DNA from: a virus
Lineage: Duplodnaviria > Heunggongvirae > Uroviricota > Caudoviricetes
DNA: 64,000 nt
Direction: 5' to 3' (one strand)
IMG/VR virus record: IMGVR_UViG_3300024518_005076
Positions 51,788 through 56,847 of the stretch are shown one piece after another. Below the pieces are notes generated by a model. It was given only the letters and a program-made list of their open reading frames with translations. It did no database searches and was not told the DNA's origin. Numbering within the stretch: the stretch's first letter is position 1; every line of letters begins with the position of its first letter. A program made the position numbers and the translations under genes.

Positions 51788-52108
51788 ATGTCAACGCAGG
51801 ATTTCGGCACTCCGGAAGTAGTCACGGAAACCGTCACCGTGGAGAACGTCAAGATCCTTGTGATCAACAACGCCGGAAACGGCTTTGCTGACTTCAAGAC
51901 GTTCCCGGCTGGGACCAAGTACGTGGACATCTTCAAGCAGATCATGCCTGAAGGTGCGAAGCCGGAGGATTACTCCATCCGGGTCAACAAGAACCTGGTT
52001 TCCACTGAGGACGGTGCCACTCATGGTGACAACCTGTCCATCACCAGTGCCGTCGCCAACCCGAACGATCGCCTGACGGTCGCTCCGAAGAAGGTCGCTG
52101 GAGCGTAG
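51788..52108 (+). CDS. Candidate ubiquitin-like beta-grasp protein (ThiS/MoaD-like, 106 aa) with C-terminal extension ending ...KKVAGA
   Basis: 'YSIRVNKNLVS' and 'HGDNLSIT' align to the MoaD/ThiS penultimate strand and L-DGD-h-h motif; first gene of E2-JAB-E1 cassette; AAAGGGGAAC RBS. Confidence 0.45.
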   Translation: MSTQDFGTPEVVTETVTVENVKILVINNAGNGFADFKTFPAGTKYVDIFKQIMPEGAKPEDYSIRVNKNLVSTEDGATHGDNLSITSAVANPNDRLTVAPKKVAGA

Positions 52109-52225
52109 TCGCTGCTTCTGGGGGCTGGAATTTCCGGCCCCCAGACTTTGGAGCTTCCTGGGGATACCAGAGAGGTTCGATTCCTCCGGCTCCACTTCAC
52201 GTACCTCTAATCAGGAGACCTAATT

Positions 52226-53416
52226 GTGCTACACGAAATTATTCCTGCGACCCCGCGATTAGTCGAAAAGCTTGTAGCGAGAGAGAGGGATCCCGCAAGA
52301 ACAGATCCACTACTGTGGGAAAAATCAGAAGACACTGAGATGTATATAGAAATAGCATCTCGCGAGACGGCCAAGCTGGTTTCCAGCGTAGATGTCATGC
52401 AGAGGAAAATCAGGGCGTTAAACGCAACACAGAAGCCATCTTTCGGGAAAGCTCTAAGAGATTCTGCATATACTGCCTATAACGACGCAAAGCATCAATT
52501 GGATGAGGCTTACTACAACCTAACCTCGTTCAATATACCCGAACGTCGCAGCAGCCCGGTCGCTCGGACCAACAACACCAAGAAGATTTCGTATCTGAGC
52601 AACTCCGACTTCATAGAGCAGGAAAAGGTGATGATACACCGCTCATATAAGACGGTGTTCATCACAACAGAACCAATCGTAATCGAAAACATCAACCTTG
52701 GTGCTTTTGAGATTCATGTCAGGCCACGTGTTGACTCGACAGCAGAGGCATACGCACTCAACCCCAACCCGGCAATCAGCAATCCAGTCGTTACCCACCC
52801 GAATGTGAAGAATAACACTGTCTGCCTGGGCGAAGGTAAAGATGCATACAACAAGGCCGTTATGGAAGGGCGTCTTTGCGATGCACTGCAAATTGCCTTA
52901 TCCGTCGTGAGAAATTACGGGTGGAGAAATCCCTACCTGTCTATTAGCGAATGGTTTGGAGTCAACTGTGGATTCTGTGGCCACTTGAATACACCAAATA
53001 GAACATTTCAGTGCATCGACTGCAAAGTAAAGGGATGCAAAACCTGCGCTTACACAGGGACTGCTCGAAGATGCTACGAGTGCCATGAGTACAGGCTGGC
53101 CAATCCTCCAGACGAGTGCTACAGGTGCAGTCGAGAGGCTCATAATGAATGCCCGGACTGCAAGAAGAAAGTCTGCGGGAGATGCTGGATCGAAGATTCC
53201 TGCAATCTCTGCTATCGCAGAAACAATCAAGCCTGCAACAGGTGCGAGCGTGTCACCCGGATAGACACGTGGCCAGATCCGTGTGCTGGATGTGAGGTAC
53301 GTTTATGTGCTCTATGTATGGAGCACGGAGTTTTGTGTCCTACGTGCTATCAGGGTCACCTCAATGAGAACCCGGATGTGGCACGACTTATTGGGAGTCT
53401 GCGAGATGACGACTAA
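52226..53416 (+). CDS. E2-like (UBC-fold) protein with C-terminal array of about 12 CxxC pairs (396 aa); GTG start
   Basis: 'VVTHPNVKNNTVCLGEG' = HPN motif with Cys 7 residues downstream (H at 52796, Cys codon 52823..52825); AGGAGACC RBS; paralogue of 55498..56847. Confidence 0.6.
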   Translation: MLHEIIPATPRLVEKLVARERDPARTDPLLWEKSEDTEMYIEIASRETAKLVSSVDVMQRKIRALNATQKPSFGKALRDSAYTAYNDAKHQLDEAYYNLTSFNIPERRSSPVARTNNTKKISYLSNSDFIEQEKVMIHRSYKTVFITTEPIVIENINLGAFEIHVRPRVDSTAEAYALNPNPAISNPVVTHPNVKNNTVCLGEGKDAYNKAVMEGRLCDALQIALSVVRNYGWRNPYLSISEWFGVNCGFCGHLNTPNRTFQCIDCKVKGCKTCAYTGTARRCYECHEYRLANPPDECYRCSREAHNECPDCKKKVCGRCWIEDSCNLCYRRNNQACNRCERVTRIDTWPDPCAGCEVRLCALCMEHGVLCPTCYQGHLNENPDVARLIGSLRDDD

Positions 53417-54539
53417 CAACAAACCTGTGTTCTCTCCGTCTGCATGGCAGAAATACATTCTGCTTCGAGACATGGGGGGCACTGAGATTTCCGCGATGGC
53501 GATCTGCTTTGACCCCGACGAACCGCTGAAAATCAACGATCTCTACGTGCCCGAGCAAACATGCAGCTCGGCCTACACTGAGTTCGATGACGACGCCTTG
53601 AGTGAGCTGTACGAGATGTATGGCCCGCAGATCGACCCGGATGACGACACCAAGCTCACCGGTCTGCATCCTTATCAGTTCAGCCGCATCTGGCTGCACA
53701 CTCACCCAGGTCAGAGCGCAAAGCCTTCAGGGACCGACCACACCACATTCAAGGAGCGGTTCGGGCCTCCAGACTGGGCAGTTATGTTCATTCTGGCACG
53801 TGGGGGACAAACCCATTGCGAGCTTAAGGTTCGCAGTGAATCCGGTCTTGTTAACGCTCATGTCAGGCACGATTCCAGTGAGTGGGTCGACTGGAGCATG
53901 CCGTGCGTTCCGGTGAATCATGATGAATTGAAGGAAATCTACAAGAAGAAAGTAAAAACCAGCCACGCGGCGGTGTCTTACGGCGGTGCGTGGAATGGCG
54001 GACACTCCTACACCACTCGTGGGGGCAAGCCAGGATACTACGCCAATGGAAAGTGGACCGAGTATGGGACTCAAGGGAAGTCCAACCAGACCGGCACAAA
54101 GAAGATTGAAGTTAACCAAAGAAACCAGAGAGAGCCACTCGACTTTGGCGACCTGGAATGGAGATACAAGCGTGAAGACCACTTCATGAAGCAGTATCTC
54201 CAGGATGTTTACGTGGACATCAAGACATGGGGAAATGCTGCCGACGTCATGAAGAGAGATGACTTTGAAGAAGTTTGGGCTCCGGACGACCAGGACTTCG
54301 CAATGTGGATGGACCAGAAGTGGCTCATGGGTCGAGATTGCAAAATCGAATTCATCGACGAGAGCGAAGATGGAGAAGAGACCATATGGGAATGCTCTGC
54401 CCAGGAAGCGCAGATGCTTGTCCAGAAGAAAGTCATCGAGGACACGGACTTCGGAGAGTTTTTCGGTGCAGACAAAAAGGATGACGAAGACGATGAGGAA
54501 TTGGATTTCTCTTTCCCTGGTCTGCACATGTGGCAGTAA
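53406..54539 (+). CDS. JAB/MPN (JAMM) metalloprotease-domain protein with about 200-aa C-terminal extension and acidic tail (378 aa)
   Basis: JAMM signature 'HTHPGQSAKPSGTDH' (HxHx7Sx2D) at 53697..53741 with upstream Glu; start overlaps stop of E2 gene (coupling). Confidence 0.65.
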   Translation: MTTNNKPVFSPSAWQKYILLRDMGGTEISAMAICFDPDEPLKINDLYVPEQTCSSAYTEFDDDALSELYEMYGPQIDPDDDTKLTGLHPYQFSRIWLHTHPGQSAKPSGTDHTTFKERFGPPDWAVMFILARGGQTHCELKVRSESGLVNAHVRHDSSEWVDWSMPCVPVNHDELKEIYKKKVKTSHAAVSYGGAWNGGHSYTTRGGKPGYYANGKWTEYGTQGKSNQTGTKKIEVNQRNQREPLDFGDLEWRYKREDHFMKQYLQDVYVDIKTWGNAADVMKRDDFEEVWAPDDQDFAMWMDQKWLMGRDCKIEFIDESEDGEETIWECSAQEAQMLVQKKVIEDTDFGEFFGADKKDDEDDEELDFSFPGLHMWQ

Positions 54540-54584
54540 GGCTGGCTGTAACCGCTTAATGTTTCTCTAACGGAGGTGGAAGGT

Positions 54585-55439: not shown

Positions 55440-55450
55440 CAATTCCCAAT

Positions 55451-55486
55451 ACGGAGCGCCAACCTTGGCGCTCCGTATTTCCTTTT
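55451..55486 (+). terminator. Intrinsic terminator-like hairpin between E1 and second E2 gene
   Basis: Perfect 12-bp stem ACGGAGCGCCAA/TTGGCGCTCCGT then ATTTCCTTTT. Confidence 0.55.
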
Positions 55487-55497
55487 AAGGACTAGCC

Positions 55498-56847
55498 ATG
55501 AATAGAAAGAGAGTTAAGCAGATCCTGAAGGCTTGTGGGAACTGGTCTCAGAGTCAGGAATTCGACATCCGCCCCGTCCGACAACAGTTGGCCCGTGCCA
55601 CGGGCCAACTGAACACCTCAAGGCGGATAATTACGCAATCCGCCATAAGGGGCTCTATTACTCGCGAAGAACACCTGGCCCTTCAGAGGGCAGTAGAAGA
55701 AACAAGATCCAACTTGTCTACTCTTACCCGCTGGGTCAGAGATCTCCCGTTCGACACCCAAACCAGAGAGTCAGCCGCACCGAATCTGGACTATGTCGAT
55801 CGGGACGAGTACGTCATTGACCGGAAGACAATCAGTTTCACCACAGAACCCATCACATTTGATGATGTTGAGCTGGGCAGATTCAAAGTCTCACTGAATA
55901 CAGAAAATGGCACTCTCATAGCCGAGGCCCTTGAGCCTAACCACCCACAAGAGGACTCAAGAGTTACCCATCCGAACATCAAGAATGACGCTATCTGCAT
56001 GGGAGAAGGAGCTGGACCGTTCTCGGCCTGCATCAGACAAGGCTTGTTCTTCCACGCACTGGATATCGCAGTATCCGTCGTAAGAACCAATGGGGACGAC
56101 AGCCCTTACGTTTCAATTGAAAACTGGGACGGGTACGAATGCGGCGCGTGTGGCGACAGTACCACGGATATATGCCGCGAGTGTGAAGAGGCGTTTTGCT
56201 CAGAGTGCCAGATCGCGGACACGGATGGATATTCACGCTGCGATGATTGCTCTCCGCCAACCTGCTGCATCTGTGAAGCTGTCAGGTTCGGAGAAACCTG
56301 TTCCGCCTATGGGTGCTATGAATCTATCTGTGGAGCGTGCTTGGATAATAATCACGTATGTCCGGAACACAGGCCTGTATGTGCAATCTGCGAAGAAAAG
56401 CATTCCGGAGATACCCCTTGTCCTGGCTGTGGCGATAGCGTCTGCGATGAATGCGGCTGGGAGCGATGCCACCTGTGCGATGAGTACAAATGCTCAAATT
56501 GCATTGATCAGTGCCATGCCTGCGAGGAAAAATCCTGTAACGGATGCTCTGCCATTAAGTGCGAGGAGTGCCCAGAGCATATTTGCGGAGCATGTATGCA
56601 ATCCTGTGAGTGTGGAGAAGATGTCTGTGCGACATGCTTTTCCGATAACGGAGATTGTTGTTCCAACTGTAAGGAGCCTGAGGAATGTTCGGAGACAACA
56701 GAGACGACCCCGACGAATTCATCAGAAGGGCCGCAACAACCACAGTCACCAGAAGGTTCCGGTCAAGACGAACCGAACTCTACCAGGTCAAGCGAAGAAG
56801 TATCGCAGGATGTGGTCGTATGCGAGGTGATCCTCTCGAACGACTGA
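55498..56847 (+). CDS. Second E2-like (UBC-fold) protein with larger C-terminal Cys-rich array (about 20 CxxC pairs) and S/T/P/Q/E-rich tail (449 aa)
   Basis: 'RVTHPNIKNDAICMGEG' HPN motif (H at 55969, Cys codon 55996); core 'ALDIAVSVVRTNG' parallels 'ALQIALSVVRNYG' of first E2. Confidence 0.6.
   Translation: MNRKRVKQILKACGNWSQSQEFDIRPVRQQLARATGQLNTSRRIITQSAIRGSITREEHLALQRAVEETRSNLSTLTRWVRDLPFDTQTRESAAPNLDYVDRDEYVIDRKTISFTTEPITFDDVELGRFKVSLNTENGTLIAEALEPNHPQEDSRVTHPNIKNDAICMGEGAGPFSACIRQGLFFHALDIAVSVVRTNGDDSPYVSIENWDGYECGACGDSTTDICRECEEAFCSECQIADTDGYSRCDDCSPPTCCICEAVRFGETCSAYGCYESICGACLDNNHVCPEHRPVCAICEEKHSGDTPCPGCGDSVCDECGWERCHLCDEYKCSNCIDQCHACEEKSCNGCSAIKCEECPEHICGACMQSCECGEDVCATCFSDNGDCCSNCKEPEECSETTETTPTNSSEGPQQPQSPEGSGQDEPNSTRSSEEVSQDVVVCEVILSND

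Follow-up and report, generated by a model that had tools for sequence, protein, structure and literature searches.

A phage gene cassette with the parts of a ubiquitin-like protein conjugation pathway, and its relatives in Planctomycetota

Does a bacterial virus carry a protein-tagging pathway of its own? The question is raised by five consecutive genes at 51788-56847 of the tailed-phage record IMGVR_UViG_3300024518_005076 from IMG/VR, of which a stretch of 64,000 nucleotides (the window) was analysed. A first-pass annotation, made by a model from the DNA letters and a list of their open reading frames (ORFs), had read these genes as a complete cassette for the conjugation of a ubiquitin-like protein (Ubl), with an activating enzyme (E1), two conjugating enzymes (E2) and a JAB-type peptidase. 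We find profile, structural or comparative evidence for each of these parts and consider it probable, at roughly 0.72, that the region encodes a self-contained phage-borne Ubl conjugation pathway. All five ORFs were found on the + strand, in the order Ubl precursor, E2-1, JAMM/JAB, E1, E2-2:

51788..52108, + strand: Ubl precursor, 106 aa, with a putative ThiS/MoaD-like beta-grasp core
52226..53416, + strand: E2-like protein 1 (E2-1), 396 aa, with a UBC-like core and a CxxC array
53406..54539, + strand: JAMM/JAB metallopeptidase, 377 aa
54585..55439, + strand: minimal ThiF/MoeB-type E1, 284 aa from the ATG at 54585 or 287 aa from the GTG at 54576
55448..55479, + strand: hairpin rich in GC with a T-rich run after it, possibly a terminator or attenuator, between E1 and E2-2
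55498..56847, + strand: E2-like protein 2 (E2-2), 449 aa, a divergent paralogue of E2-1

The genes are co-oriented and spaced in an operon-like manner (117, -11, 45 and 58 nt in order), with the start of JAB overlapping the end of E2-1 by 11 nt. Every motif quoted in the first-pass annotation is present (E1: RFSRQ, GVGAIG and DFDVVEDTNITTQG; E2-1 and E2-2: VTHPNVKNNTVCLGEG and VTHPNIKNDAICMGEG; JAB: HTHPGQSAKPSGTD), and the codon positions given for the Cys residues (52823 and 55996) and for HTH (53697-53705) are correct. Two structural genes in the window bear out the phage setting: 16183-17643 encodes a major head protein (E=1.7e-26) and 19562-20992 a portal protein (E=1.1e-36). The same phage recurs on other contigs of up to ~99 kb; contig L003 is identical to the window DNA and L001 is a close phage relative. 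Within the phage genome, the cassette lies inside a co-oriented early/replication block. A promoter scan of the region found fewer sites than in shuffled sequence and was uninformative.

E1, JAMM peptidase and Ubl precursor

Pfam ThiF (PF00899) matches the phage E1 with E=4.5e-22 and 78.8 bits against a cutoff of 28.1, in agreement with the hallmarks originally noted. NCBIfam ThiF/MoeB models match it as well, and its PDB matches are MoeB (1jw9, E=5.5e-10) and also the Uba5/NAE E1s. The protein consists of a single ThiF domain of ~220 aa, to which the phage copy adds an acidic C-terminal tail, and its motifs comprise the Arg finger RFSRQ (54600-54614), GVGAIG (54660-54677), DFD (54732-54740) and DFDVVEDTNITTQG. 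Positions R, R, Q, GxGxxG, DxD, N, K, D and R are conserved to at least 95% among 85 members from related loci. A Cys in the context G-x-C-T (codon 55092-55094) is present in 78 of 78 untruncated sequences and, in our own reading of the alignment, would be the equivalent of the crossover-loop Cys of ThiF/MoeB. Of the two possible start codons, the ATG at 54585 is favoured over the GTG at 54576 by its Shine-Dalgarno sequence and by the way the gene is called in L003, the identical contig.

The JAB protein carries Glu27 (53484-53486) and H98-x-H100-x7-S108-x2-D111 (53697-53738; motif HTHPGQSAKPSGTD), and residues E27, H98, H100, S108 and D111 are invariant in a 78-sequence alignment of the family. 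Pfam Prok-JAB reaches the phage protein with E=1e-3 and 19.3 bits, below its curated cutoff of 25 bits. A profile of the 78 sequences matches only JAMM/MPN+ chains (Rpn11 or Rpn11-like) in the PDB, led by 6fjv, the Rpn11-like protein of Caldiarchaeum (E=2.7e-3), and by yeast Rpn11 (E=3.5e-3). The alignment with the Rpn11 chains spans ~105 residues and places the Glu and HxH..S..D residues in register, as expected for the JAMM enzyme that had been annotated. Some of the ~80 homologues carry the names RPN8/RPN11 at their source. The phage protein has a long C-terminal extension that is missing from the bacterial orthologues.

The ATG of the Ubl precursor is preceded by a Shine-Dalgarno sequence. 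The encoded protein has a putative ThiS/MoaD-like beta-grasp core, preceded by an extension of 19 aa and containing an insert of 13 aa, and it terminates in ...APKKVAG105-A106 (Gly105 codon 52100-52102); five close homologues share the invariant end ...TVAPKKVAGA(M). The phage protein itself has no match in Pfam, PADLOC, PHROGs or NCBIfam, and a profile search of the PDB returned spurious matches to TIGIT only. Its core aligns throughout with proteins of 72-75 aa that occupy the same operon position elsewhere. One of these orthologues, from L005 and 43% identical, scores above the gathering threshold of Pfam ThiS (23.2 versus 22.5 bits), which makes the annotated ThiS/MoaD-type fold plausible by way of a relative, and a second orthologue matches ThiS, TGS and Ub-Mut7C, all of them beta-grasp families. 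An hhalign comparison of the Ubl profile with E. aridi BilA and E. coli ThiS was non-significant, with the ThiS alignment in the expected register.

Among 73 distinct Ubl orthologues, almost all end in ...TP(T/V)K(I/V)(E/D/A)G-A followed by a tail that is variable in sequence and at most ~20 aa long; the exceptions are one protein with Gly replacing Ala and one apparently truncated ORF. Read from these alignments, conservation breaks off sharply at the Gly, the pattern that marks a modifier whose precursor is cut back to a C-terminal Gly. Two such precursors have been described: the tail of E. aridi BilA is removed by the JAB of its operon, with cleavage after ...VAG (10.1101/2023.09.26.559546), and the tail of Caldiarchaeum pro-ubiquitin is removed by an Rpn11 enzyme (PMC5654768).

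Every cassette protein is longer in the phage than in bacterial orthologues (L005/L009). The Ubl has 106 aa versus 72-75 aa, JAB has 377 aa versus ~220-250 aa, and the E1, with its acidic tail, has 284 aa versus ~220 aa.

The E2-like proteins

E2-1 and E2-2 are paralogues, as had been claimed, with 29% identity (BLASTP 1e-32), and E2-2 matches a hidden Markov model (HMM) of the E2 core at 3.2e-27. E2-1 begins with an N-terminal helical region, followed by a UBC-like core with H191-P192-N193 (52796-52804) and Cys200 (52823-52825; motif VTHPNVKNNTVCLGEG). Its C-terminal array of 12 CxxC pairs contains 24 Cys (aa 248-374; 52967-53347) and is predicted to bind zinc. In E2-2 the corresponding residues are H158-P159-N160 (55969-55977) and Cys167 (55996-55998; motif VTHPNIKNDAICMGEG). 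The array of E2-2 is longer, with 17 CxxC pairs and 43 Cys after the core (~56140-56673), and is followed by an acidic/Ser-rich tail.

An exhaustive profile search places both proteins in a large family, with 1371 representatives of clusters at 50% identity at E<=1e-3 and 897 at E<=1e-10, where a word-indexed search had given one relative only. A search of IMG/VR for close relatives of E2-1 returned none. A typical member has ~350 aa, with a core of ~115 aa and CxxC arrays after it. The fusion of both E2s to Cys-rich arrays, listed as unusual in the first-pass annotation, is thus real but a trait of the whole family and not a peculiarity of the phage. Throughout 123 aligned members and 84 sequences from the loci, the H, the P, the Cys 7 residues past motif position 3 and the Gly next to it are invariant; motif position 3 is N or H.

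Neither E2-1 nor E2-2 has a significant match in Pfam, PADLOC, PHROGs or NCBIfam (no Pfam family at E<=1), and a Pfam scan of ten family members found no model for the core. A search of the PDB with the core profile gave no match, and single-sequence searches with E2-1 and E2-2 gave non-significant RING/FYVE-like matches that lie in the Cys arrays. When the family profile was aligned by hhalign to four human E2s, the scores were non-significant and the HPH..C of the family fell on the HPN..C of the human enzymes. An AlphaFold model of the core, built from the 123-sequence alignment, has a mean pLDDT of 83.5, whereas a 3-sequence alignment had given an unusable model (pLDDT 49). The PDB structural neighbours of the core model are almost exclusively UBC/RWD folds, and viral proteins without names in BFVD share the fold with probability 0.99-1.0. 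On the strength of this model and the family-wide invariance, we consider it well supported, though short of proof, that the core has a UBC-like fold and the active site of an E2. The profile search that had been suggested as a check of the annotation therefore succeeds for the E1 (Pfam), JAB (family profile) and an orthologue of the Ubl, but not for the E2s, which have no UBC profile match.

These results also bear on the reading that the motifs are chance matches in unrelated proteins that form no functional cassette. The lack of significant library matches for the E2s and the phage Ubl would be expected if this were so. Yet hundreds of homologues keep every motif residue unchanged, more than 60 independent loci preserve the synteny and UBC folds dominate the E2 fold search. 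We rejected the reading as contradicted by the family-wide invariance, and regard it as scarcely credible.

A further alternative accepts the E1-Ubl pair and takes the E2-like proteins as its substrates or regulators, comparable to the CD-NTases that are modified by Cap2 in CBASS, or as non-catalytic UEV/RWD-like adaptors with a structural Cys. The Cys, however, sits at the E2 active-site position, 7 residues past the invariant HP(N/H), is flanked by Gly and is invariant in 123/123 aligned members, and RWD/UEV domains are without such a Cys. Moreover, neither phage E2 has a clear copy of the C-terminal tail motif that part of the family carries. We therefore consider a substrate or adaptor role improbable.

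This tail motif is the peptide (V/I)(Q/H)Pxx(L/V)G(Q/E)(A/T)A(V/L)PA, which is found in ~16% of family representatives at a fixed distance from the C-terminus (26/151 real versus 3/151 shuffled sequences; e.g., L008 7055-8080). It resembles the Ubl tail TPTKIEGA, is missing or degenerate in the phage E2s and might, judging by that resemblance, be a docking or pseudo-substrate motif. In another family member (P0088, 783 aa), the E2 core is fused to a GYF_2 domain at the N-terminus and to a trypsin-like peptidase domain.

Relation to known systems and distribution

The first-pass annotation had compared the cassette with Bil, and the gene order is indeed the same as in BilABCD (Type I/II), the ISG15-like anti-phage operons of bacteria: Ubl, E2, JAB/JAMM, E1. 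The two systems also share the Ubl terminus, since E. aridi BilA is cut at ...VAG|A... and the phage Ubl ends in ...KKVAG-A. The likeness does not extend to the E2 and E1 proteins. The E2s described here have an HPN/HPH-Cys site of the eukaryotic kind, with a helical region before the core and CxxC arrays after it; they have no match to Pfam Prok-E2, and hhalign against E. aridi BilB gives a probability of 0.2%. The E1 is a single ThiF domain of 220-287 aa, whereas BilD combines IAD+AAD with a mobile CYS domain. The Ubl is ThiS-like, with a single domain and a Gly-Ala end. Finally, the cassette occurs in phages and integrated elements of Planctomycetota, not in host defence islands, and the phage has a second E2. 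Membership in Bil was rejected on E2 and E1 architecture.

The nearest conceptual relative is the operon of the Caldiarchaeum subterraneum type (Ub, E1, E2, small RING E3 and Rpn11-like protein), in which a pro-modifier trimmed by an Rpn11-like JAMM enzyme is combined with an E1, an HPN-type E2 and a Zn-binding partner (PMC5654768). Related operons are reported from some bacteria, Planctomycetes among them (PMC4197634). In the phage the Zn module is fused to the E2 as a long CxxC array, whereas that of Caldiarchaeum is a separate small RING-H2 protein; no separate RING gene belongs to the conserved unit in the loci inspected. The modifier is ThiS-like and ends in Gly-Ala, in contrast to a ubiquitin-like modifier with Gly-Gly, the E1 is minimal, and the E2 is too diverged for a sequence match to Pfam UQ_con or to E2s of the PDB.

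Bub (6E/DUF6527) and type II CBASS (Cap2/Cap3) are likewise prokaryotic conjugation machineries with E1, E2 and JAB. BubB and one CBASS E2 are among the structural neighbours of the E2 model, and the E1 matches the Cap2 'E1-E2' models of PADLOC. The cassette differs from these systems in having no DUF6527 protease, E1-E2 or JAB-E1 fusion, CD-NTase or multi-beta-grasp Ubl, and their E2 active-site motif and architecture are unlike those of the cassette. PRTRC (ParB-related, ThiF-related) modules of integrative and conjugative elements and plasmids resemble it in that a ThiF-family enzyme belongs to a conserved core module of a mobile element near DUF932-type genes; DUF932 genes lie beside some bacterial copies of the cassette. 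The phage E1 matches TIGR03736 weakly (5.4e-6, far under the cutoff), and the Ubl, E2 and JAB match none of the other PRTRC families. PRTRC membership was rejected, with the ThiF domain alone matching, and weakly.

CysO/Mec+ and QbsE/QbsD/QbsC, in which JAMM trimming of sulfur-carrier tails is known, likewise combine a carrier resembling ThiS with a ThiF-like adenylase and a JAMM peptidase that cuts off C-terminal residues. The cassette could accordingly be a pathway in which a JAMM-trimmed ThiS-like protein is adenylated and thiocarboxylated by a ThiF-like enzyme for a thio-cofactor, thionucleoside or thio-metabolite, with the Cys-rich protein as a sulfur relay or an Fe-S/Zn partner. In keeping with this, the Ubl is nearest to ThiS, the E1 is nearest to ThiF/MoeB and the partner protein is extremely Cys-rich. 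The conserved unit, however, includes no rhodanese, cysteine desulfurase or sulfur-acceptor enzyme, the Ubl ends in a single Gly-Ala and not in Gly-Gly, the core of the Cys-rich protein is UBC-like and carries an invariant HPx...C site, and the distribution is confined to mobile elements. Because the unit always includes an E2-like protein and conserves no enzyme of sulfur transfer, we judge a sulfur-carrier role very unlikely.

We scanned genomes, one per species, and found 209 loci, of which 80 underlie the counts given here. Nearly all of the 80 belong to Planctomycetota (Planctomycetaceae, Pirellulaceae, Phycisphaerae and Gemmataceae), and the host of the phage is itself probably a Planctomycetota bacterium. 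The unit Ubl-E2-JAB-E1 is complete and in order in 58 of the 80; the remainder are mostly interrupted by contig ends. With local HMMs of the four families, the ordered unit was also found in three IMG/VR viral contigs (L009-L011, 56-168 kb), in two distinct metagenomic bacterial contigs (L005-L008) and in the phage relative L001. GenBank phages and PLSDB plasmids, searched at both the DNA and the protein level, gave no match. The cassette's presence in a phage, which had been called unusual, is therefore true but not unique: the cassette is a widespread mobile module of Planctomycetota, and the same gene order exists in other viral contigs, though in no GenBank phage searched.

Catalytic and motif residues are conserved across all four cassette families. 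The four cassette genes are the only genes common to the phage and the related loci, which identifies the cassette as a discrete mobile module. Several genomes carry more than one copy. Planctomicrobium sp. SH527 (NZ_CP195790.1) has four (L021, L026, L028 and L035), with 92-96% DNA identity, and its Ubl ends in TPTRIEG-A. In two of these copies the identity ends exactly at the E1 stop codon, which puts the cassette at the margin of a proliferating element whose downstream cargo varies. The bacterial loci are flanked by tyrosine or serine recombinases (integrases), DUF932 genes and AAA ATPases.

The second E2 was seen in none of 10 other distinct, non-identical loci and in at most 1 of the 80 genome loci; it is special to this phage lineage among the loci seen and thus appears to be a lineage-specific addition. 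Between the E1 and E2-2 genes lies the terminator-like site at 55448-55479, a perfect, GC-rich hairpin of 14 bp followed by a T-rich run. As judged from its sequence and position, this possible terminator or attenuator marks where the ancestral four-gene unit ends, and it suggests that E2-2 is a separately regulated or later-added unit; in other loci, conservation breaks off at the E1 stop codon.

Directly upstream of the cassette, ~26-27 of the 80 bacterial loci have two genes without a Pfam match, of ~300 aa and ~60 aa (e.g., L039 781-2040 and L017 2123-2596). These genes have no homologue in the phage window and may be accessory partners.

Proposed pathway and role

In the pathway that we propose, the JAMM peptidase would trim the residue(s) after Gly105 of the 106-aa Ubl precursor. 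The small ThiF-type E1, probably a homodimer, would then adenylate the exposed Gly carboxylate and probably receive the Ubl on its conserved Cys (codon 55092-55094). From there the Ubl would move to the catalytic Cys of an E2, Cys200 of E2-1 or Cys167 of E2-2, which would pass it to target-protein lysines. Fused to each E2, the CxxC (Zn) array could serve as a built-in substrate-recognition or E3-like module, so that with two E2 paralogues the phage would have two target specificities. Conjugation may also be undone by the JAMM enzyme. Beyond domain identity and residue conservation, we infer these steps by analogy with BilABCD and the Caldiarchaeum operon.

Several points weigh against this pathway. 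For every member of the cassette families, the conjugation chemistry is predicted from the genes, and trios of Ubl, JAMM and ThiF proteins occur in sulfur-carrier pathways too. No sequence or profile method (Pfam, PDB searches, hhalign) significantly ties the E2 to UBC, and the structural scores of the E2 model are modest, which makes them a main source of uncertainty. Zinc binding by the CxxC arrays is a prediction, for which the non-significant RING/FYVE-type matches give the only hint of a fold. The phage Ubl and the phage JAB each fall short of Pfam thresholds. The Ubl has a single Gly and then Ala, not Gly-Gly, and since several Ubls, including the phage copy, end exactly in Gly-Ala, the activated residue could be Ala instead of Gly.

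The first-pass annotation had suggested that the phage may attach the Ubl to host or virion proteins, or counter Ubl-based host defences. As to what a conjugation pathway would do for its carrier, our tentative preference is that it serves the mobile element itself, in host takeover, counter-defence or establishment. We lean this way because the module behaves like the core of a multi-copy element and because of its position in the early/replication block of the phage.

Alternatively, the same biochemistry could serve defence, as a Bil-like anti-phage or superinfection-exclusion cargo that tags structural proteins of competitors. In favour of this, the genes follow the BilA-B-C-D order, Bil is proven to act against phages and conjugates its Ubl to a tail protein, and the bacterial copies lie among integrases and AAA ATPases, in mobile-element settings that often hold defence cargo. 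On the other hand, the PADLOC matches are to the generic E1 domain only and the E2 and E1 belong to other families than those of Bil. Up to four copies per genome, 92-96% identical and set in a conserved block, resemble a core module and not accessory cargo, and the phage cassette lies within a co-oriented early/replication block. We rank the exclusion of competing phages second among the possible roles, as a serious though less likely alternative; other roles would share the remaining probability.

A more specific form of the element-serving role is possible, and we put it forward with reserve. The E2 may combine a eukaryote-style HPN enzyme with an E3-like zinc-finger array in an all-in-one E2/E3, with which the element would tag proteins of the host or of rival elements during infection or establishment. 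If true, prokaryotic viruses would here have their first complete virus-encoded E1-E2-DUB-Ubl pathway (DUB, deubiquitinase), and the ancestry of E2 and RING-type ligases would gain a new branch. The prokaryotic Ubl conjugation systems characterised to date act in host defence (Bil, CBASS Cap2) or in stress response (Bub). A four-gene cascade in phages and multi-copy elements raises the possibility that bacterial viruses use protein tagging for themselves, as many eukaryotic viruses do. The large E2 family, absent from Pfam, NCBIfam, PADLOC and PHROGs, keeps the HPN-Cys site of eukaryotic E2s next to predicted Zn-finger arrays and bears on how E2 and E3 functions became coupled. Planctomicrobium sp. 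SH527, apparently an isolate, has four cassette copies in its complete genome and could be an experimental entry point.

The full-text literature that we searched, a set to which subscription papers, notably Burroughs et al. 2011, do not belong, holds no description of a phage-borne cassette or of an E2-CxxC fusion. Prokaryotic Ubl conjugation operons are known; what appears new within the literature searched is the distinctive E2 family and the phage and mobile-element lifestyle.

Elsewhere in the window, the early genes upstream of the cassette include one for a CsrA-like protein of 59 aa (MLVLSRKPNEQIVIADGEIVITLLEIRKGSVRLGIEAPRDIPVHRREV...; 48663-48842, + strand). Pfam CsrA is listed for the identical gene in L003, making it a phage-borne homologue of a global RNA-binding regulator. 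A ParB-like gene followed by one for a 759-aa DNA methyltransferase fusion occupies 21854-25022, and a second DNA methyltransferase gene lies at 33448-34197; these genes likely provide anti-restriction or partition functions.

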